Shown: piece after piece, positions 2,989-56,655 of the stretch
How positions within the stretch are numbered: position 1 is the stretch's first letter
Layout of the letters: the number at the start of each line of letters is the position of its first letter
Assembly (NCBI GenBank): GCA_000004985.1
Contig: GG738890.1
Reading direction: 5' to 3' (one strand)
DNA length: 64,000 nt
DNA from: Naegleria gruberi
Lineage: Eukaryota
Notes under the pieces: model-generated
Told to the model about the DNA's origin: nothing
The model's input: the letters and a program-made list of their open reading frames with translations, nothing else
Database searches by the model: none
Position numbers and translations under genes: made by a program

Positions 2989-4947
2989 TTAAGCAAGTTT
3001 CTTCCAATTTTGATAAGCATTCTGCACAGCATTAAAAACAGTGTTCAATTCAAATGTAATTAATTCACTCTCCTCTTGGGTTAACAAATCATTCTTCAAT
3101 AGTGGTGATTGATCTGTGTGAATTGTAAAAATTACTTTTTTGTAAACTTTCAATATTTCAGGTCGTTCAGCAGTTGTGCAAAGTAAAAGTGAAGCATGAT
3201 CTGCCTTATTTGTATGATATTTCTCAATGACATAGTTCAATACTTGTCGAAATGTTTTAAATTTACAGAAATTTAAAATTTCTTCTTCGATTTTGTCTTT
3301 CTTTTCTTTTAGTTTCTTTTGAGTTTCGGATAGTTTCAAAAGAGATAATCTTGGCATTTCACATTCGCTTGGAATAACTTGAATTTCATGTGAAAATTCT
3401 TTCAATTTCTTTGATTTGTGAATTAATCTTAAAGTGTAAATTCCAGACCATTCTGGAATAAATTCACAAGAATAATGAGATTCGTCCGCTGATTTCTTAC
3501 ATTGTAATTTAAACTTGTTTTCATTAATTAAATTATGATATTCTTCATTTTCTGTTTTAAATGTAAATTCCAATTCCAGATTTTCAATATTTTGAATTTC
3601 ATTTCCATAAATATCCAATGGTTTAATCTTGATTATTGTTGAATTCAATGAAATTACATGTTTCAAATCGGGTAAATTAATAATTTCAATAGTATGAATT
3701 GAAGATGGTATAATATTACAAAATAATCGATTATCAATAGATGAAATATTTTCACTTTCTAACACTCCGATTGGTATTAAACTTTCTGTTTTTTCATTTT
3801 TGTAAAAAACTTCAATTTCCAATTGACTTATTACAATACTTTCAATAAAAAAGTTAATTAATTGATCTTCCATTGAATAGTTCACTTGAATTCTTTCATT
3901 TTCTTCAATAATACTTTCTTGCAAACTCCATTTCCATCTTGATCTGGAATTCTTTTCAAAGAATTGTAAAATTACATTTTCAGGATTAAACCCCAAAAGA
4001 GTTGTATTTCCAAACATATCTTTCAAGTTCATTGTAATTTTACAACTCTCTCCTGCACCTATTTCAATTTGAGATTTCCCATTCTCAAAAGAAACAAAAC
4101 TATTCTTAAATGAAACTGTTGATGAATGAAATTCCATGTCAAATTTCATTTCACAACATGTTCTATATTGAATATAACTCAATTCCAAGCAATAATTTCC
4201 ACTTTCATTAGTTGTACATGCAAAAACTGAAATATTTTGAGAATGAGAAATCAAATCACATTTTTGAACTTTTCTATTCTTTTTCATATCTGTAAAATAC
4301 CCGCTACTCTTATAAAGTATTGCATTCCATATTGTTTCTTCACTATTAATTGGATTACCGAAAATGTCAAATGTTTCCATTGAGAAATGAAATGGAATTC
4401 CAACATTGGCATTCAGTTTTTTAGAATCTTCTTCCAAAATATTATCTGAAATGATCTTAAATTTACAAAATTTCTCTGAAGGATATAATAAATTACTTCT
4501 TTTCAGTATAGAATAAGTAAATTGTATCACAAATGAATAATAGGTTAATTCATTCTCAAAATGGTAATAAATTGGAGAGTCCATTCCTTGAATGAGTATT
4601 GAAAATCCCTTTAAATCAGGTGTTACATCTGAATCTTCATTAAAATTCAATTCCTTGATGGATTTTAGTGAAATTTGTTTTTGATGATCAATTAAAATAT
4701 TTTCACTTTCTATATTTGTATCTATTTCTAATGATCTTTTATGAGGTTTCCCATTAATATTCTTCTTCCATACAGTATATTGTTGTGTTTCATTAGTAGA
4801 AATGTACTGTTTCATCAATTCTTTCAAGTAATTATTCAATTCTAAACTCCAATCATTATTTGTAAATTGAACCTTGACCTTGTTTTCCTTTTGTGGAATA
4901 ATAATACTGGATGTCTTTTTTAATTTCTTCAAATTCTTGTTGCTCAT
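2989..4947 (-). CDS. hypothetical 652-aa protein with filamin/Ig-like repeat signatures
   Basis: long ORF; repeated ...D.FGN... motifs (DIFGNPI, DMFGNTTLLGF, DIYGNEIQ) resembling filamin-type Ig repeats; no other domain recognised. Confidence 0.45.
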   Translation of the reverse strand: MSNKNLKKLKKTSSIIIPQKENKVKVQFTNNDWSLELNNYLKELMKQYISTNETQQYTVWKKNINGKPHKRSLEIDTNIESENILIDHQKQISLKSIKELNFNEDSDVTPDLKGFSILIQGMDSPIYYHFENELTYYSFVIQFTYSILKRSNLLYPSEKFCKFKIISDNILEEDSKKLNANVGIPFHFSMETFDIFGNPINSEETIWNAILYKSSGYFTDMKKNRKVQKCDLISHSQNISVFACTTNESGNYCLELSYIQYRTCCEMKFDMEFHSSTVSFKNSFVSFENGKSQIEIGAGESCKITMNLKDMFGNTTLLGFNPENVILQFFEKNSRSRWKWSLQESIIEENERIQVNYSMEDQLINFFIESIVISQLEIEVFYKNEKTESLIPIGVLESENISSIDNRLFCNIIPSSIHTIEIINLPDLKHVISLNSTIIKIKPLDIYGNEIQNIENLELEFTFKTENEEYHNLINENKFKLQCKKSADESHYSCEFIPEWSGIYTLRLIHKSKKLKEFSHEIQVIPSECEMPRLSLLKLSETQKKLKEKKDKIEEEILNFCKFKTFRQVLNYVIEKYHTNKADHASLLLCTTAERPEILKVYKKVIFTIHTDQSPLLKNDLLTQEESELITFELNTVFNAVQNAYQNWKKLA

Positions 4948-45436: not shown

Positions 45437-46465
45437 ATGCCACCATTCAAATGTTCGATTAATACTGATGACAATGATGATGATCGAATGCTGAAGAAAT
45501 TACAGGCCCTGAATAAGCCAAATCCACCTCCGAAGACTAAATCATCTCATAAGAAAAGAATGGAAGATAAAAATCAATTAAAAATTTCTCCAATTGGAAT
45601 TCCATTTGAGGTAATTTTTGATCATGTGGTGAAATATTTGGATATTGGAACGGCTCATAAGAAATTGAGATTAGTTTCAAGGCAGTGGAATGATATTATT
45701 TTGGGAAATGATGAGGATTATTCAGTGGAGTTTGAGATTGATATTGATTTTTCTAGGCAGCAATTTTTGAGTAAGAAATTTTACTCAACTGCTGAACGTG
45801 GATTTTTCAAAAATGTTACAAAACTTACAATGAAAGCATTGCCTCAAGGGATGAAGAAGACAGAAAATCGTACATTAATTCCAGGTAAAACGATTGTTAC
45901 GAGAGGTTACAAGGAAAATGTTGGTGGAAGTGTTCTCAAATTCTTTCCAAATTTGAAAGTTTTGAATTTGAATGAAAATGAAATTCCAGAAGAAAAATTC
46001 AATTGGCTTTTAGACTTGAAATCCAATCAATTGGAAGAGCTTTATTTGGAGGGTAATGATTTTAAATTGAAAACTTGTGAACACATCAGTTCATGTGAAA
46101 ATCTACAGAGCTTGACAGTTTTAAATTTATCCCACAACCAACTCACTGATGCAGGATGTAAATTACTATCTCAGAGTGTTTGTCTTCAAAATCTCAAAAA
46201 CTTGAACATTTCCTCAACTGATTCCTCTCTTGACGGCTTGATGTATATTTCCAATGCAACATTTTCATGCAATTTAACAATTTTGAGAGCAAACAATAAT
46301 AATCTTTCAGATGCATTTCATCAAAGAATCACAAATGGAGAATTTAAATTCAAATCTCTTCAAACTTTCTCAATTAGAAATTGTGAAATATCACAAGAAA
46401 CTCAAACCCAAATTGCAAAGGACAAGAAATTGATTTCTACTACATTGGATCGAATCCTCCTGTAA
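45437..46465 (+). CDS. F-box/leucine-rich-repeat (RNI-like) protein
   Basis: F-box-like IPFEVIFDHVVKYLDIGTAHKKLRLVSRQWNDII followed by LRRs (LNLNENEI, LNLSHNQLTDAGCKLL). Confidence 0.6.
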   Translation: MPPFKCSINTDDNDDDRMLKKLQALNKPNPPPKTKSSHKKRMEDKNQLKISPIGIPFEVIFDHVVKYLDIGTAHKKLRLVSRQWNDIILGNDEDYSVEFEIDIDFSRQQFLSKKFYSTAERGFFKNVTKLTMKALPQGMKKTENRTLIPGKTIVTRGYKENVGGSVLKFFPNLKVLNLNENEIPEEKFNWLLDLKSNQLEELYLEGNDFKLKTCEHISSCENLQSLTVLNLSHNQLTDAGCKLLSQSVCLQNLKNLNISSTDSSLDGLMYISNATFSCNLTILRANNNNLSDAFHQRITNGEFKFKSLQTFSIRNCEISQETQTQIAKDKKLISTTLDRILL

Positions 46466-47898: not shown

Positions 47899-49254
47899 TT
47901 AAAAGTTGAACTCTTCTAATGTTTGATATTGGAATTGTTCCAACTCTTCTCTTGTCTTTTTCTTTGGTTTGAGAGGTTTGGCAAAGTAAGGAAGTTTCAA
48001 TTCTAGATTTTTCACTAATTTCAAACTTTCTTTCAAGGTTTCTACTTTCGTTTCAGAGAGATTAGTTCTTTCAATATTTAAATATTGCAAATTTTTCATC
48101 AAACACAAATGTTCTATACTGAAATCATCAATTTTTGTGCCATCCAAATCTAAACCTTTCAGCTGTTTCATTTTAGATAGGTAGAGAGCTCCAATATTTC
48201 GAATAGGATTTTCTCCAAGATTAAGCTTTGTCAGATTCTTCATTTTGGAAATAAATTGTACACCTCGTTCATCTATTCTATTGCGGATTAGTTCTAATTG
48301 AGATAGATTCTCTAGTTTTGAAATAAATTGCACTCCATCATTTCCTATATTATTATAACTCAAAGAAAGATATTCGAGTGATTGTAGCAATGATAAATAT
48401 TCAACTCCTTCATCATCTATTTTGTTATATGCAAGACTTAGATATTTCAAATTTGAAAGTTTGACTAAATGACGTAAAGATTCACTTCCAAAATTATTTC
48501 CAAACAATTTCAATTTTGAAAGAGTGGTAATTTGTGAAATGTTTCCCAGACCAATCTCATCAATATTTGATGCTTCCAATTCAAGTGTAATAAGGGGGAG
48601 TTTAGAAATATATTCCATGCACTTTCCTCCAAGATCAACTCCATTCAAATTCAAATGATTGAGATTGGAAATTTCACTCAATTGTTCAATATCATCCATG
48701 GATAGAACATTTTTCGATAAATCCAACTTTTTCAGACCTTTCAATTTCTTTAAATGATATAATCCTCCACTGACCTTATTATATGGGAGGGTGAGCTCCT
48801 CTAATGAGTTCAAATTTGAGAAATATTGTAAACTCTTTGGCCCCAAATTACATGAGCAAGCATTCAACCTCTTTAAACATTTAAACTTTGAAAGATAAAT
48901 TGCATTTTCATCTCCAATATAACTGCCATCAATTATTAACTCTTTCAAATTCTCAAGATATGGAAAATTCTCCAAAATTGCAACTCCCACACTTCGACAA
49001 CTAAATTTAACCATTGAAGATAACATTCCACTATCACAACATTCCCTAAATGATTCCTCCTTCTCAAATTCCATACCAATAGAGAAGCTTCTGGTCATTG
49101 AGAAGGGTGTTCCTTGTATTAGACTCTGCCACTGCTTGCACACATGCTGAAAATAACACAACAATTCAGAGCCATCAATGAATGAAAATATTTGATCTCT
49201 AATGATCTCTGCTGGGAGAATTTGAGAAAAATCTGTGAGTTGTTTTTCTTGCAT
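47899..49254 (-). CDS. F-box/leucine-rich-repeat (RNI-like) protein
   Basis: N-terminal F-box LPAEIIRDQIFSFIDGSELLCYFQHVCKQWQSLI then ~14 LRRs (LKxLDLSxNxI...). Confidence 0.65.
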   Translation of the reverse strand: MQEKQLTDFSQILPAEIIRDQIFSFIDGSELLCYFQHVCKQWQSLIQGTPFSMTRSFSIGMEFEKEESFRECCDSGMLSSMVKFSCRSVGVAILENFPYLENLKELIIDGSYIGDENAIYLSKFKCLKRLNACSCNLGPKSLQYFSNLNSLEELTLPYNKVSGGLYHLKKLKGLKKLDLSKNVLSMDDIEQLSEISNLNHLNLNGVDLGGKCMEYISKLPLITLELEASNIDEIGLGNISQITTLSKLKLFGNNFGSESLRHLVKLSNLKYLSLAYNKIDDEGVEYLSLLQSLEYLSLSYNNIGNDGVQFISKLENLSQLELIRNRIDERGVQFISKMKNLTKLNLGENPIRNIGALYLSKMKQLKGLDLDGTKIDDFSIEHLCLMKNLQYLNIERTNLSETKVETLKESLKLVKNLELKLPYFAKPLKPKKKTREELEQFQYQTLEEFNF

Positions 49255-50329: not shown

Positions 50330-52303
50330 TTATTGCTTTGCAAATCGGCTTGGTAGCTTGTCTGGTATGGATAATAGGGATGGACATGAGAGAGCTTGTT
50401 TAATTTGTGTATCTTTCCTCAAGTGTTTAGGAGCATACAAGTATACAACTGATGAGTACCTTTCCATGCATTCCAATAGGAGATCCTTGTCAGATCTAAC
50501 TCTTTCTGAAGCATAATTGAAAATCTCGCCACCTGAATTTTCAATCACTGTCTTATCATCCCTCATCTTGTAGGTCAATAAACGAGGATCTATATTGCTC
50601 AAATCTGAAGGATATTTTTCTCTCAAGATGTCAATTGGTACCACTCCATACTTCAACAAATCTTGATTCGATTCAAAGGCCATACTCCAGAAAGTTTTAT
50701 CCTTACGAAGCTTACTACTCATGAGAACGTTTGTAAATGCTGAAATTTCAAGCAAATGCAACATAAACTCATCATCTTTCAAGTATTCTGCTGGAATGAA
50801 ATTTTTAACTGCATTGTAATTCATAGCATAGTCGATATCATCATTTTCCATATTTCTCAGTATTTCCAAGATTTGATTCATTGTCAATTGTAGTCCACTG
50901 ACATATGTCAAAGCTGTAGGATTTGCTAATATTTTGACATCATTCTTGAGAGAATCACCAATGAAAAGAGCACTTTTTTCATTGATTTCAATACATTCTA
51001 ACATGAATTCCCTATTATTTCTCAATTCAGGAGAAGCAATACTTAAGAAAATTACATTTCTATTTGAGATTTCCTCAAGGATTACATCTCTATCTTCCAA
51101 ATATTCATTAGTCTTGTAATTTCTATGGAAATGTTGATTGATAACTTCAACCATGAGTGTTAAATTGTTCAACAATTCTGGCTCTACTGATTCAACATCC
51201 AATGTTACCTGCAAGAACCTTAAAATGTCCTCCTTTGTCTTGATTTTGAATGCACTTTCTTTCAAATCAATAGTATAGACCCAGTGTTTAGCCACTTCTG
51301 GATCATTGACAAATTCTGTTTGAACACGATTTGGATCTACTGAATAAGGGTACTGTTTCATTAATCTGATTGTAAAATCCTTATCCTTTCTTAAGCTATG
51401 ATGCAAGAAAATGTGAGAACTATTGATATTGAACAAGTCAAAGTAAGCATCCTTATCCTTTCTAATCTCAGAAGGAAAAAACGCTGGAATATTTTGAAAA
51501 TAACAATCTGGATCAGTTTCAAACATTTTCTTGACTGCTCCCAATATTTCTGGATCTCTTCTCAATTCAATACTGAGATATGGATAGAAATTAGCATTGG
51601 CTTTCAAAAACTCGACCAGATCCTTCTTATCTCCTTCTTGCATAATTTTCACATACTTTGTCATATTTCCTATCATTTCCTCATCTGGATAAAGTTCATT
51701 ACCAAACAATGAAATTGGTTTGATTACATGAATTGGAATACTTTCAATCCAATCTTTGATATGCCCAATGCATTTCAATGATGGGAACATTGAAGTACCT
51801 GTAAATATGAAAAATAAGCCATTTCTCTTATCTAAAAGTGTCAATACTGAAGTGAAATGTCCTTTGTGTACCATAATCAAATTCTCTTGCCATTGATTTT
51901 CACCAAATTCACTATTCAATATCAAGGGAAAGGTTGAGTGTTCAGAGATTGGTGTTTCTGCAATAAATTCCCAATCATCAACTGGGGCAATAGAAATTAA
52001 ATTAGAGAAGTGATATCTGCCACTTGCACAATTAGTCAACCAAACCTTCAAGTGAAATTGCATATTGGTAAAACCAAATTGATTAATTAAATTGGTTAAT
52101 TGTTCATTGCTGAGTACAGGAGAATCATAATCATGGGCAAGTTCTTGGCAATATTTATGCCACTTGTCAATCAAGTCATTCTTCTCTTCTGTTTGATAAA
52201 TTGCATCAAAGGTTGAATTTATCAATCTGTTGTGTGCTCTGTCTTCTGTTGAAAGGAATGGGAAAATCCTAACCACAACCTCTGGGATGTTGAAGATATT
52301 CAT
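50330..52303 (-). CDS. hypothetical protein with DUF4116-like tandem repeats
   Basis: 657 aa; recurring ~35-aa units (...LRKDKDFTIRLMKQ..., ...SPELRNNREFMLECIE..., ...KLRKDKTFWSMAFESN..., ...RVRSDKDLLLECMER...). Confidence 0.45.
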   Translation of the reverse strand: MNIFNIPEVVVRIFPFLSTEDRAHNRLINSTFDAIYQTEEKNDLIDKWHKYCQELAHDYDSPVLSNEQLTNLINQFGFTNMQFHLKVWLTNCASGRYHFSNLISIAPVDDWEFIAETPISEHSTFPLILNSEFGENQWQENLIMVHKGHFTSVLTLLDKRNGLFFIFTGTSMFPSLKCIGHIKDWIESIPIHVIKPISLFGNELYPDEEMIGNMTKYVKIMQEGDKKDLVEFLKANANFYPYLSIELRRDPEILGAVKKMFETDPDCYFQNIPAFFPSEIRKDKDAYFDLFNINSSHIFLHHSLRKDKDFTIRLMKQYPYSVDPNRVQTEFVNDPEVAKHWVYTIDLKESAFKIKTKEDILRFLQVTLDVESVEPELLNNLTLMVEVINQHFHRNYKTNEYLEDRDVILEEISNRNVIFLSIASPELRNNREFMLECIEINEKSALFIGDSLKNDVKILANPTALTYVSGLQLTMNQILEILRNMENDDIDYAMNYNAVKNFIPAEYLKDDEFMLHLLEISAFTNVLMSSKLRKDKTFWSMAFESNQDLLKYGVVPIDILREKYPSDLSNIDPRLLTYKMRDDKTVIENSGGEIFNYASERVRSDKDLLLECMERYSSVVYLYAPKHLRKDTQIKQALSCPSLLSIPDKLPSRFAKQ

Positions 52304-52707: not shown

Positions 52708-53685
52708 ATGATGAAAAAATCAACTAATCAATACAACAAGAATAATTATCATCAAAATATGAATAATTCAAGAAGGCAAATACCTCAATCACAACAACAT
52801 CAATCGGTAGTTTCTTCTAATAATAATAATCAAACAATGAATAGGATAAACAATATAAATAATATGAACACCAATAGTGCAACAATTGGATCAAATTCTC
52901 AAAAGCCTTCAATTATTGTTCATCAAAGACTAAGATATCCTCCTGCTAGAAATGAGTTGAGTAAATATTATTCAATCCGAAACGCTGTTGATGATGAGCA
53001 GATGGCTGATGTTATATTTCCAACAATGAGATTAGCCTTCATTATTGTTAGCATTGATCATATTCACTTCCCTAATGAAAATAACAAGGAACACGGAGTT
53101 GCATCAAATACTGTAAATAATCAGAGAAAGGCTACAATAGAAGAGCTTGTCTCCATTGGATCATTCTTTGAAAGACCATTTGTAATATGTATGATTTCAA
53201 ATCCAACAATGCTTGGAAGATTTACCGAATTGCAAAATATATTCACTTCAAAAGTAGTGGAGAGACAAACTGTGAGAGAAATCTATGTTGAAAACTCAAA
53301 GAAAGAGAATAAGAAAGTGGTTGTTAAGGATGATACTTTTCCACCAACTCTATTCAGACCTCCTCAACTTCTTCTTTGTAGCTCTGTGAGTGGTATGATG
53401 AATTGTATTCAAGAGTTGACCAAAATAGAAAGCAGAAAGAGCAGGGTAAAGCAAACTGAACAAGAAATGTTAGAAGCTCCTCAATTTGCTCAACAAGTTG
53501 CAGAGCAGATCTTTACCAATTCTGAGATTGGACATGGGTTGTCCTCTTACGAAACTAGCATCCTCTTGCAGGGAATGGGATCTGTCTCCAATGTCATTCT
53601 TTCACAAAACTACCAAGAGATTATCAACAAAACTCCACTTGAAACAAGGAAGGCCAAACTTGTTTTTGAGTATTTCAACCAATAA
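52708..53685 (+). CDS. hypothetical protein with N/Q-rich N-terminus
   Basis: 325-aa ORF; globular C-terminal two-thirds, no domain recognised. Confidence 0.45.
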   Translation: MMKKSTNQYNKNNYHQNMNNSRRQIPQSQQHQSVVSSNNNNQTMNRINNINNMNTNSATIGSNSQKPSIIVHQRLRYPPARNELSKYYSIRNAVDDEQMADVIFPTMRLAFIIVSIDHIHFPNENNKEHGVASNTVNNQRKATIEELVSIGSFFERPFVICMISNPTMLGRFTELQNIFTSKVVERQTVREIYVENSKKENKKVVVKDDTFPPTLFRPPQLLLCSSVSGMMNCIQELTKIESRKSRVKQTEQEMLEAPQFAQQVAEQIFTNSEIGHGLSSYETSILLQGMGSVSNVILSQNYQEIINKTPLETRKAKLVFEYFNQ

Positions 53686-53689
53686 AGCG

Positions 53690-55486
53690 TTACAGTTTAT
53701 TCATTCTTCTTCCTTTAGCAGCTTGGCCGCTCTCTTTCATCCAAGCAATTGCCTTAGAGTTGAGAAGCACACTATTTCCCTTTATCCAAAGGCCATTATT
53801 AGGTCCAATGATAACTCCCTGCAATTGTTCATATCCTCTTGGTTTGTAGGTTGGAATGGAATCTTGCGAAATGGATTGAATAATTTGTGGAAGAGCTTGA
53901 TAAACGGTTTTTGCATGTTTGTGAGCACAAGTAGCAAGTTTAGTTTCCTTAACATTGGTGGCATCTCCAATTGCAAAGATATGATTGTAAGGTTTACCAT
54001 TTTCATCGAGTACTTGCATGCTTGGATTGACTTTCACGAATCCCTTCTCATCCAAACATTTGGAAAAGGTTGACTCCATAAAATCTGTTTGAGGTTTCAT
54101 ACCTGTACAGATAAAGCACACTGAGAAGCTTAAATTTGATTCCGTCTCCTCACCACTCTCACTCTTTGTGCGTACAGTGAAGGTGTATGGATCTTTCTGA
54201 GCTACAACTTGGCTCTTGAGTAGCACCTTAACATTACCCATTGTTTTGTAAATTTCAGAGACTGATTTGTGAGCTTCAGTGGATGGACGCATCAAAATGT
54301 CAGATCTCTGTATCAGAGTGACATTTTTCTTTTGATATTTTTCAGCTAGGAATCCAGCAACTTCTACACCAACATAACCTCCACCAATTACACATATTTC
54401 ATCTGCATGTTCTTTAGCATTTGAAATGAATTCATGAGATTCTACCAAGCTATCAGCACAATATGTATTTACAAATTTGATTTGGGAATCATTACTAATT
54501 GGTAACTCATTCCAACAAGTACATCCAGGTCCAACTACCAGATAATCATATCTGATAAAGTAGGTATTCTCTCGCTTACTTATTTTTCTAACATCCTCAT
54601 TCTCATTGATTATTTCCTTAGTTTCAAAAAAAACTCCAAACTTTGTGACATTGGTTGCAATTCCCTTAATACAAGTCACTGTTTCTGGGAGAGTTTTTTT
54701 GTGATCTACTGAAATATGATTAACATTATTCTTATCAGAAATAATTGTTGGATAAATTGGAACCAAATCAAGAGTTCCCTCCTTATCAATAACTGTTAAA
54801 TCGAATATTTCATTCAGAATACTCTTACAAATCTTATAACCGCTCATTCCTCCTCCAATTAAAACCAATTTGGGTTTTTGTAAAATCTTGAAAATATCAC
54901 TCTTTGATATCGTTGTACTATTTGATGATTGTGCATGTCCAATCCATCCCAAAACATTCATAATATTTACAAAAATCATTGAATCCTTCTCATTGAGATG
55001 CAACTGTGTACCAATCCAATCAATTAAATCACTCACTAAAAAGCAATGATAGGTCGTACTTCCAAACCATTGAAATCTCTTCTCTGACATTTTAACTCCA
55101 CTGTATGGCTTTTGAAATTCCTTAAAAACAATCATTTTGAGAGCTTTTACAAATTTTCCATCGAATAATTGTTCAAAAAATTCCTTTTTCATTTCTATTG
55201 ATGATGATTTTTCAATAATCATCTTTTCTATAATTTCCTTATCAATTAATTGTTTATATTCCGAAATTATTTGATCATTTAAAAATTCATCATCTTTTTG
55301 CATTCCGTGACTCTGATTTTCACTCATTTTCAATTCATTTTCATCAACATCTTGTAATTGTTCGGAAAAATCCAACACTTCTGTGGCAGCAGATTCAGTG
55401 GCCATGGTTGTTGTATTTTTTTGTGTTGTTGTAATGTTCTGTTGCAATGCATCCCAATATTTCAAGAGAATTAAATTTGTGCGCAC
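53690..55486 (-). CDS. FAD/NAD(P)-dependent pyridine-nucleotide-disulfide oxidoreductase (AIF/FSP1-like) with N-terminal DEP-like domain
   Basis: two Rossmann motifs (LVLIGGGMSGYKI, VIGGGYVGVEVAGFLA), FAIGDATNV FAD-binding end; N-terminal FQWFGSTTYHCFLVSDLIDWIGTQLHLNEKDSMIFVNIMNVLGWI resembles a DEP domain. Confidence 0.65.
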   Translation of the reverse strand: MRTNLILLKYWDALQQNITTTQKNTTTMATESAATEVLDFSEQLQDVDENELKMSENQSHGMQKDDEFLNDQIISEYKQLIDKEIIEKMIIEKSSSIEMKKEFFEQLFDGKFVKALKMIVFKEFQKPYSGVKMSEKRFQWFGSTTYHCFLVSDLIDWIGTQLHLNEKDSMIFVNIMNVLGWIGHAQSSNSTTISKSDIFKILQKPKLVLIGGGMSGYKICKSILNEIFDLTVIDKEGTLDLVPIYPTIISDKNNVNHISVDHKKTLPETVTCIKGIATNVTKFGVFFETKEIINENEDVRKISKRENTYFIRYDYLVVGPGCTCWNELPISNDSQIKFVNTYCADSLVESHEFISNAKEHADEICVIGGGYVGVEVAGFLAEKYQKKNVTLIQRSDILMRPSTEAHKSVSEIYKTMGNVKVLLKSQVVAQKDPYTFTVRTKSESGEETESNLSFSVCFICTGMKPQTDFMESTFSKCLDEKGFVKVNPSMQVLDENGKPYNHIFAIGDATNVKETKLATCAHKHAKTVYQALPQIIQSISQDSIPTYKPRGYEQLQGVIIGPNNGLWIKGNSVLLNSKAIAWMKESGQAAKGRRMNKL

Positions 55487-56204: not shown

Positions 56205-56304
56205 CTGAATTTTTTTACAATATTTTTTCAATATTTCAATATCCAAGATTACAACATTTCAAATAATTGAATTAATATTGAATTAATTGAACTTGGAAAC
56301 ATAC

Positions 56305-56579
56305 CTCCTGTCACTGCAGAAGCTTCAAAAAATGCAGCATCCATATCATGTGCCAATTGAGATCCTCTCATGAAATTAACCTTTCTTTCATCTTCTTTAT
56401 CTTTTTTATTTCCAACTATAATGCAAGTAACATTATCATCACTCAATTCACGTGCATCCTCAATCCATCGTTTCACATTTTTAAATGATTCTTCATTGGT
56501 TATATCATAAACAACAATGGCACCAATTGCATCTCTATAATAACTTCTCACAACACTTCTATATCTTTCTTGACCTGCA
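56305..56579 (-). CDS. Rab-family small GTPase, exon 4
   Basis: (WD)TAGQERYRSV...YYRDAIGAIVVYDIT...IIVGNKKD...FFEASAVTG; Rab2/4/14-like. Confidence 0.8.
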
Positions 56580-56655
56580 CTGTTTAATGTTTCAATGTAT
56601 AATTTGTAAAAATTGTGATTTTTTTGTAAATTTTCAAATAATTTCATTTACGTAC

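Follow-up and report, generated by a model that had tools for sequence, protein, structure and literature searches.

The DEP-FSP1 gene and its product

The window analyzed here is a stretch of 64,000 nucleotides of Naegleria gruberi (contig GG738890.1, assembly GCA_000004985.1), AT-rich with ~32% G+C, and on its minus strand, at 53690..55405, lies a gene whose product joins a divergent DEP domain to an oxidoreductase of the FSP1/AIFM2 family. We refer to it as DEP-FSP1. The coding sequence is single-exon and complete, with 571 amino acids (aa) and a stop codon at 53690-53692, according to the open reading frame (ORF) list, an exact-sequence look-up and colinearity with orthologs. The initial annotation had placed the ORF at 53690-55486, and an ORF was found there, on the minus strand, but the protein start differs: the version called by the ORF tool (53690..55486) has 598 aa and a GTG start, whereas the first ATG, at 55405, gives 571 aa. 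This protein is residue-for-residue identical to N. gruberi XP_002673520.1 (EFC40776.1, NAEGRDRAFT_71358, UniProt D2VQV3), deposited only under the name 'predicted protein', and it aligns colinearly with its orthologs from N. lovaniensis and a metagenome (alignment A1).

Four parts could be distinguished along the protein, all encoded on the minus strand. Residues 1-83 (55157..55405) form an acidic, predicted-helical region that is poorly conserved in A1; the net charge of residues 1-97 is about -11, and the helices of residues 1-83 are of low confidence in the full-length structure model. The DEP domain follows at residues 84-174 (54884..55156), and a linker of about four residues, LQKP (residues 175-178, 54872..54883), leads from the last DEP strand to the first Rossmann strand of the oxidoreductase, which occupies residues 179-571 (53693..54871) with its flavin adenine dinucleotide (FAD), nicotinamide adenine dinucleotide (phosphate) (NAD(P)H) and C-terminal domains. 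The two modules had been sized at ~180 and ~420 aa; the division into two stands, with sizes of ~176 aa for the N-terminal part and ~395 aa for the oxidoreductase. No transmembrane or hydrophobic segment was found in the 571-aa protein, and a reading as a transmembrane protein was rejected on that ground.

The same architecture was present in four other sequences, which together with the window protein are called the family below. The closest (L001) is an environmental N. gruberi variant, 98% identical. The N. lovaniensis protein C9374_010064 (P0002) shares 45% identity over 94% of the length, and a metagenomic protein (P0003) shares 43% identity. The fourth lies at 3116..5029 of L003, a Naegleria-like Logan contig (SRR29240419, 38.5% G+C), where the ortholog had been called as two genes of 280 and 342 aa.

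Identity of the N-terminal DEP domain

A DEP-like stretch had been pointed out in the N-terminal part, FQWFGSTTYHCFLVSDLIDWIGTQLHLNEKD, which corresponds to residues 111-141 (54983..55075, minus strand) and in alignment A3 spans the DEP hairpin strand, helix alpha2 with the CF...DW core, and the start of helix alpha3. With Pfam DEP (PF00610, gathering threshold 32.7 bits) the window protein gave a sub-threshold but rightly placed match at residues 103-163 (E 0.01, 16.2 bits), and the metagenomic ortholog P0003 also scored below the threshold (25.5 bits, E 1.2e-5). The Pfam DEP scan of the N. lovaniensis ortholog gave no match, probably because of an insertion of ~18 aa between DEP helices alpha2 and alpha3 of that protein (residues ~120-137). 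As the Pfam score is sub-threshold, the DEP call rests on profile and fold evidence.

The independent part of this evidence came from a profile (A2) built from four family sequences only. Against 177,635 PDB sequences, all 16 of its matches were DEP-domain proteins, namely DEPTOR (2.4e-6), the DEP domain of DVL1 (1.3e-5, nearly full length), DEPDC5, DVL2, RGS9 and P-Rex1/2. When the same profile was run exhaustively over 1.84 billion representative proteins, 62 matches reached significance, with E down to 1e-11, although these are not a census of all DEP proteins. Four of the 62 were family members, including a fragment (P0113). Seven of the eight non-family matches that were checked are Pfam DEP proteins (DEP E 1e-31 to 1e-103), often with several DEP copies and RGS or kinase domains; the eighth (P0100) has no Pfam family. 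Alignment of the family against a DEP-only alignment by hhalign gave a probability of 98.9% (E 2.5e-17).

The hallmarks of DEP domains, namely P-x-x-G-V, C-F, W, G-x-I-x-H and the terminal aromatic strand, align column for column in A3 (45 sequences including the window protein), where G28, F47 and W55 do not vary and conservation of C46 exceeds 90%. An AlphaFold2 model of the domain (predicted local distance difference test, pLDDT, 88.2; predicted template modeling score, pTM, 0.76) shows the order H-E-E-H-H-E-E, that is alpha1, the beta-hairpin arm, alpha2, alpha3 and two strands. In a Foldseek search of this model against the PDB the best 39 matches were all DEP domains, with template modeling (TM) scores up to 0.76 and among them RGS9, RGS7, DEPTOR, DVL2, pleckstrin, P-Rex1, DEPDC5, Epac2 and LYCHOS; generic winged-helix regulators ranked only after these 39 structures. 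The model is not independent evidence, because its input alignment consisted mostly of DEP domains. We conclude that a genuine if divergent DEP domain occupies residues 84-174. The absence of a DEP-like fold in structure prediction or profile searches had been named in the initial annotation as the outcome that would count against its DEP proposal; both approaches returned DEP domains, and the proposal stands.

Within the domain, the motif QKPYSGVK (residues 98-105, 55091..55114, minus strand) lies at the junction of alpha1 and the beta-hairpin and is invariant in all orthologs (A2). Together with the WF motif, which is likewise strictly invariant, it is a candidate for the surface that contacts a docking protein or that packs against the enzyme. 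The bounds of the linker were taken from the secondary structure of the DEP model and from the start of the Pfam Pyr_redox_2 match at residue 179, and an F and a P in this region are invariant in A2.

Identity of the oxidoreductase module

The C-terminal part had been described as a flavoprotein with two GxGxxG motifs, similar to AIFM2, and this description proved correct: both motifs are present and the best PDB matches are FSP1/AIFM2. Pfam Pyr_redox_2 covers residues 179-498 (E 2e-32) and Pyr_redox residues 337-403. FSP1/AIFM2 was matched with E 6e-19 by the single sequence (phmmer) and 4.7e-27 by the family profile. The other PDB classes followed far behind with the family profile, namely NADH oxidase/nitrite reductase (3e-13), coenzyme A (CoA)-disulfide reductases (~5e-10), Ndi1 (~1e-6) and AIF1 (~6e-4); the lead of FSP1 over other flavoenzyme classes amounts to at least 14 orders of magnitude. 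Database matches from outside the family are named FSP1-like or AIF homologue A/B and share 24-32% identity.

The cofactor and catalytic motifs were compared in an alignment (A4) of 12 AIFM2-like sequences, three from the family and nine others (animals, plants, oomycete, archaeon and environmental); all positions given are on the minus strand. The FAD-binding GxGxxG is GGGMSG at residues 184-189 (54839..54856), in which G184, G185, G186 and G189 are invariant. The NAD(P)H-binding GxGxxGxE is GGGYVGVE at residues 341-348 (54362..54385), and its E348, equivalent to human FSP1 E156, is invariant. The second NAD(P)H motif is ICTGMKPQ at residues 432-439 (54089..54112), with invariant G435 equivalent to human G244; this motif and GxGxxGxE have been defined for FSP1 (PMC10643123). 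The FAD-binding GD lies in AIGDAT at residues 478-483 (53957..53974), where G480 and D481 are invariant and D481 is equivalent to human D285. Mutagenesis has established that FSP1 activity needs residues of the E156, G244, D285 and K355 type (PMC10643123), and the last of these corresponds to K557 (53735..53737), invariant in the 12 sequences.

K557 belongs to a putative FSP1-type C-terminal domain at residues 520-571 (53693..53848), with the pattern YKP...G-N-G...K. The domain has 52 aa versus ~55 in FSP1, where it consists of two strands and a helix, and the phmmer alignment enters it through YKP...G-N-G; in the full-length model it is of low confidence. In FSP1, this domain forms the functional dimer and the quinone pocket (PMC10516921). 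Judged by its sequence, the oxidoreductase module belongs to the AIFM2 family in the wider sense but is not an animal-type FSP1. A class I disulfide reductase was also considered and rejected, the conserved CxxxxC being absent in A1. The N. lovaniensis protein carries an insertion of ~32 aa in the FAD domain (residues ~290-320).

Distribution of the fusion

The fusion is conserved and not an artifact of one gene model, since the same architecture occurs in N. lovaniensis, in the metagenomic protein P0003 and in L003. In the ortholog on L003, the reading frame shifts at the conserved site DYLVLAPGC|TCW, a sign either of a frameshift from sequencing or of a very short intron. The fragment P0113 seems to come from the same species as L003, through another gene model in which DEP helix alpha2 is spliced out.

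Among the 95 homologs of the full protein, the N-terminal extension was confined to family members. Conversely, among the other 59 matches of the A2 profile, an oxidoreductase was found only in P0113, the fragment of a family member. As far as the searches reach, the fusion is restricted to a few Naegleria-like lineages. The architecture had been called unusual, and rightly so: it was seen only in N. gruberi, in N. lovaniensis and in a few environmental sequences related to them. The suggestion to look for it in other amoebozoan or protist proteomes took the organism for an amoebozoan, but N. gruberi is a heterolobosean (Discoba). A DEP-FSP1 protein or architecture was undescribed among the papers searched. 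A survey of the AIF family that included N. gruberi placed excavate sequences in the AIFM2 branch, with the DEP fusion unmentioned (Klim et al., 2018).

Neighboring genes

A convergent gene on the plus strand, 52708..53685 (325 aa, Q/N-rich, no Pfam family), stops 4 bp from the DEP-FSP1 stop codon (53685..53690), so the 3' untranslated regions of the pair must overlap. The environmental contig L001 (98% identical) preserves the convergent pair as well. An antisense ORF of 195 aa with a TTG start, 53486..54073 on the plus strand, was listed as lying entirely within the DEP-FSP1 coding sequence and has no support; in DNA this rich in A and T it most likely arose by chance. On the other side of the gene, the ORF 56249..56647 (minus strand) covers only positions 47-152 of a 162-position Ras/Rab family model (E 6e-31), and its N-terminal P-loop part must therefore be in an upstream exon beyond an intron.

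Three further ORFs, 45437..46465 (plus), 47899..49254 (minus) and 50330..52303 (minus), lie upstream in the window. Two of them show leucine-rich repeats by eye (no Pfam scan), one of these with an F-box-like N-terminus, and the third encodes a 657-aa DUF4116-repeat protein (E 1e-23). The leucine-rich-repeat and DUF4116 ORFs look like families expanded in Naegleria, with no evident link to DEP-FSP1. The neighboring genes are unrelated to it, and no functional link was found among them. Two neighboring ORFs also match N. gruberi proteins exactly, with the same 350-kb scaffold as their source. Gene order carries little functional meaning in N. gruberi.

Membrane anchor and proposed mechanism

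FSP1 is a glutathione-independent suppressor of ferroptosis and a vitamin K reductase, and its function depends absolutely on its placement at membranes by N-myristoylation. Gly2 and the N-myristoylation motif MGxxxS were absent in all family members examined. Three Naegleria-family proteins start with MATESA, MSSGIN and MSLHLD, while the metazoan FSP1-like matches start with MG. Plant and prokaryotic members also lack the motif, so that MGxxxS marks animal FSP1 and not the wider AIFM2 family. In all other AIFM2-like homologs, the Rossmann strand begins within ~5-20 residues of the N-terminus. The myristoylation motif of FSP1 (residues 1-11) stands immediately ahead of its first Rossmann strand (PMC10516921). 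The motif and the C-terminal domain are found on the membrane-facing side of the FSP1 dimer, where the quinone tunnels open (PMC10516921). Since the DEP domain stands at the position of the myristoyl anchor in a protein without Gly2, we propose that it is the targeting device.

We have arranged these features into a plausible model of how DEP-FSP1 might work. The protein would be a soluble, peripheral enzyme of two modules, whose flavoenzyme would have the three-domain layout of FSP1, namely FAD domain, NAD(P)H domain and a short C-terminal domain for the dimer and the quinone pocket. It would move hydride from NAD(P)H to FAD, and the electrons would then pass to a lipophilic acceptor in the membrane, for which ubiquinone or another quinone of that kind is the likeliest candidate. 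The DEP domain would replace the lipid anchor and dock the reductase on a non-mitochondrial membrane. As the DEP domain is neutral, a membrane protein is a likelier dock than acidic lipids. We regard a DEP-docked, FSP1-family quinone reductase at a membrane as the best explanation and, by a modest balance of the evidence, as the probable one; its substrate, its membrane recruitment and its biological role are what we infer from the sequence.

Several observations weigh against this model. The DEP domain has a net charge of 0 to +1 in three orthologs, and in A3 it lacks the polybasic helix-3 patch and the basic hairpin residues of lipid-binding DEP domains, so that direct binding to acidic lipids is unsupported. 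The full-length AlphaFold2 model, made from a five-sequence family alignment, has a mean pLDDT of 47, with the N-terminus below 50, and is therefore unusable for the relative placement of DEP domain and enzyme. Segment 190-310 of the FAD domain has diverged so far that HMMER does not align it to FSP1. The equivalent of human E160 is missing in the DEP-fused clade, and in place of the ATGS motif the clade has GPGCTCW, in which T296-C297-W298 do not vary; because of this replacement and its invariant cysteine, the acceptor may differ from that of FSP1. The neutral DEP surface and the missing E160 equivalent also temper the role put forward in the initial annotation, a putative reductase recruited to a membrane or by signaling. 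The literature searched contained no report of localization, expression or activity of the protein.

Alternative explanations

In one alternative, the DEP domain is a signaling adaptor that docks on a receptor or regulator, such as the tail of a G-protein-coupled receptor, a G-protein/RGS-type complex or a TOR-pathway complex, and the redox activity is delivered or switched by a signal. DEP domains interact with phospholipids and membrane receptors (PMC5784254), and the receptor interaction is in line with such a role. The closest structural matches, RGS7/RGS9, Dishevelled, DEPTOR and DEPDC5, all act through protein partners; the neutral rather than basic charge of the domain fits them, and the invariant QKPYSGVK and WF surface motifs suggest a conserved surface for protein contact. 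A partner is not identifiable from the sequence, however, and the neighboring genes are unrelated. This alternative also largely overlaps with the docked reductase proposed above, of which it is a refinement set apart only by the kind of docking site, and taken separately we rate it as possible but clearly the lesser choice.

In a second alternative, the enzyme is no quinone reductase of the FSP1 kind and its chemistry has changed in this clade, for instance to NAD(P)H oxidase activity or to the reduction of thiols, persulfides or other small acceptors by means of the invariant Cys297. E160 is a proposed proton-relay residue, and its substitutions abolish the function of human FSP1 (PMC10643123); at this position the DEP-fused clade has F, F and A (F352 in the window protein, 54350..54352, minus strand), whereas E is found in 9/9 of the other AIFM2-like sequences (A4). 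The replacement of ATGS, PGCTCW at residues 293-298 (54512..54529, minus strand), is specific to the clade (A1, A4). Taken together, F352 and GPGCTCW hint that the proton relay or the substrate chemistry has been altered. Only 25-32% of the residues are identical to those of any FSP1, and the next-best PDB relatives are the NADH oxidase/nitrite reductase and CoA-disulfide reductase classes. Nevertheless, the residues equivalent to E156 and K355 are conserved together with the GD and CTG motifs and, judged by sequence, a C-terminal domain of the FSP1 type, FSP1 is by far the best match, and the family has neither the conserved CxxxxC redox-disulfide motif nor an N-terminal cysteine of the CoA-disulfide reductase type (A1). 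A change of chemistry of this kind is thus rather doubtful, a little more so than the adaptor.

It is also conceivable that the DEP domain acts within the molecule or between subunits, as an autoinhibitory lid or as a module for dimerization or oligomerization, with no targeting role. The linker of only about four residues forces the DEP domain up against the flavoenzyme. Domain swapping is possible for the DEP domains of Dishevelled, and domain-swapped DVL2 DEP dimers were among the Foldseek matches. Dimerization is required for the function of FSP1 (PMC10516921), but the C-terminal domain that already provides it appears to be retained here with its invariant lysine, and the full-length model is too poor to show interdomain contacts. 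We consider this explanation unlikely.

Finally, a DEP likeness by chance or through a generic winged helix, or a fusion created by gene prediction, is effectively excluded: Pfam DEP stays below its threshold in every family member and the confident structure model was built on a mostly-DEP alignment, but the family-only profile matches only DEP domains in the PDB and retrieves Pfam-verified DEP proteins with E down to 1e-11, hhalign and the ranking of winged-helix proteins behind the 39 DEP structures agree with it, and a gene-model artifact is rejected because nothing interrupts the ORF and four lineages have kept the fusion.

Significance

DEP-FSP1 is a new combination of known modules and not a new kind of system; it is lineage-restricted, and the function ascribed to it is putative. 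If a DEP-docked reductase is confirmed, membrane delivery, and not the lipid anchor itself, would be the conserved requirement of the FSP1 family, and the protein would be a natural experiment on the targeting of this family outside animals. A redox enzyme would also join the short list of catalytic modules recruited by DEP domains, whose other recruited partners are, to our knowledge, RGS proteins, guanine nucleotide exchange factors (GEFs), kinases and scaffold proteins. With this assignment, a 'predicted protein' of Naegleria, the genus to which the pathogen N. fowleri belongs, receives its first annotation.

Going further, a free-living heterolobosean might regenerate membrane quinol antioxidants outside mitochondria by an FSP1-type enzyme, with a DEP domain for the myristoyl anchor as a targeting solution reached independently of animals, in a defense against lipid peroxidation or a plasma-membrane redox system that is gated by a signal, for instance through a receptor tail. 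This extension is tentative, and we hold it with much less confidence than the docked reductase itself.

Comparison with known systems

DEP-FSP1 resembles FSP1/AIFM2 in predicted domain layout and in length, in its cofactor and catalytic motifs and in the best sequence match of its C-terminal 395 aa. Like FSP1, it would be soluble and would depend on an N-terminal device for access to membranes. Unlike FSP1, it has a DEP-containing extension of 176 aa instead of MGxxxS, a hydrophobic residue at the E160 position, GPGCTCW for ATGS, and insertions in the FAD domain, at an overall identity of 25-32%. Its DEP domain shares fold, element order, core residues and profile matches with those of RGS7/RGS9, Dishevelled, DEPTOR, DEPDC5, pleckstrin, P-Rex1 and Epac. 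In contrast to the lipid-binding DEP domains of the Dishevelled and Epac type, it is neutral, without the basic residues of hairpin and helix 3, and its partner is a redox enzyme and not the RGS, GEF, kinase or PDZ modules of the usual DEP proteins. With Ndi1, a type II NADH dehydrogenase (NDH-2), and AIF1 it shares the superfamily of flavoproteins with two dinucleotide-binding domains and the logic of proton transfer by a catalytic Glu/Lys pair (PMC10643123). It differs from NDH-2 and AIF1 in that both match it far more weakly than FSP1 does, and in that NDH-2-type amphipathic membrane helices at the C-terminus, an AIF_C domain and a mitochondrial presequence all went undetected in the Naegleria protein.

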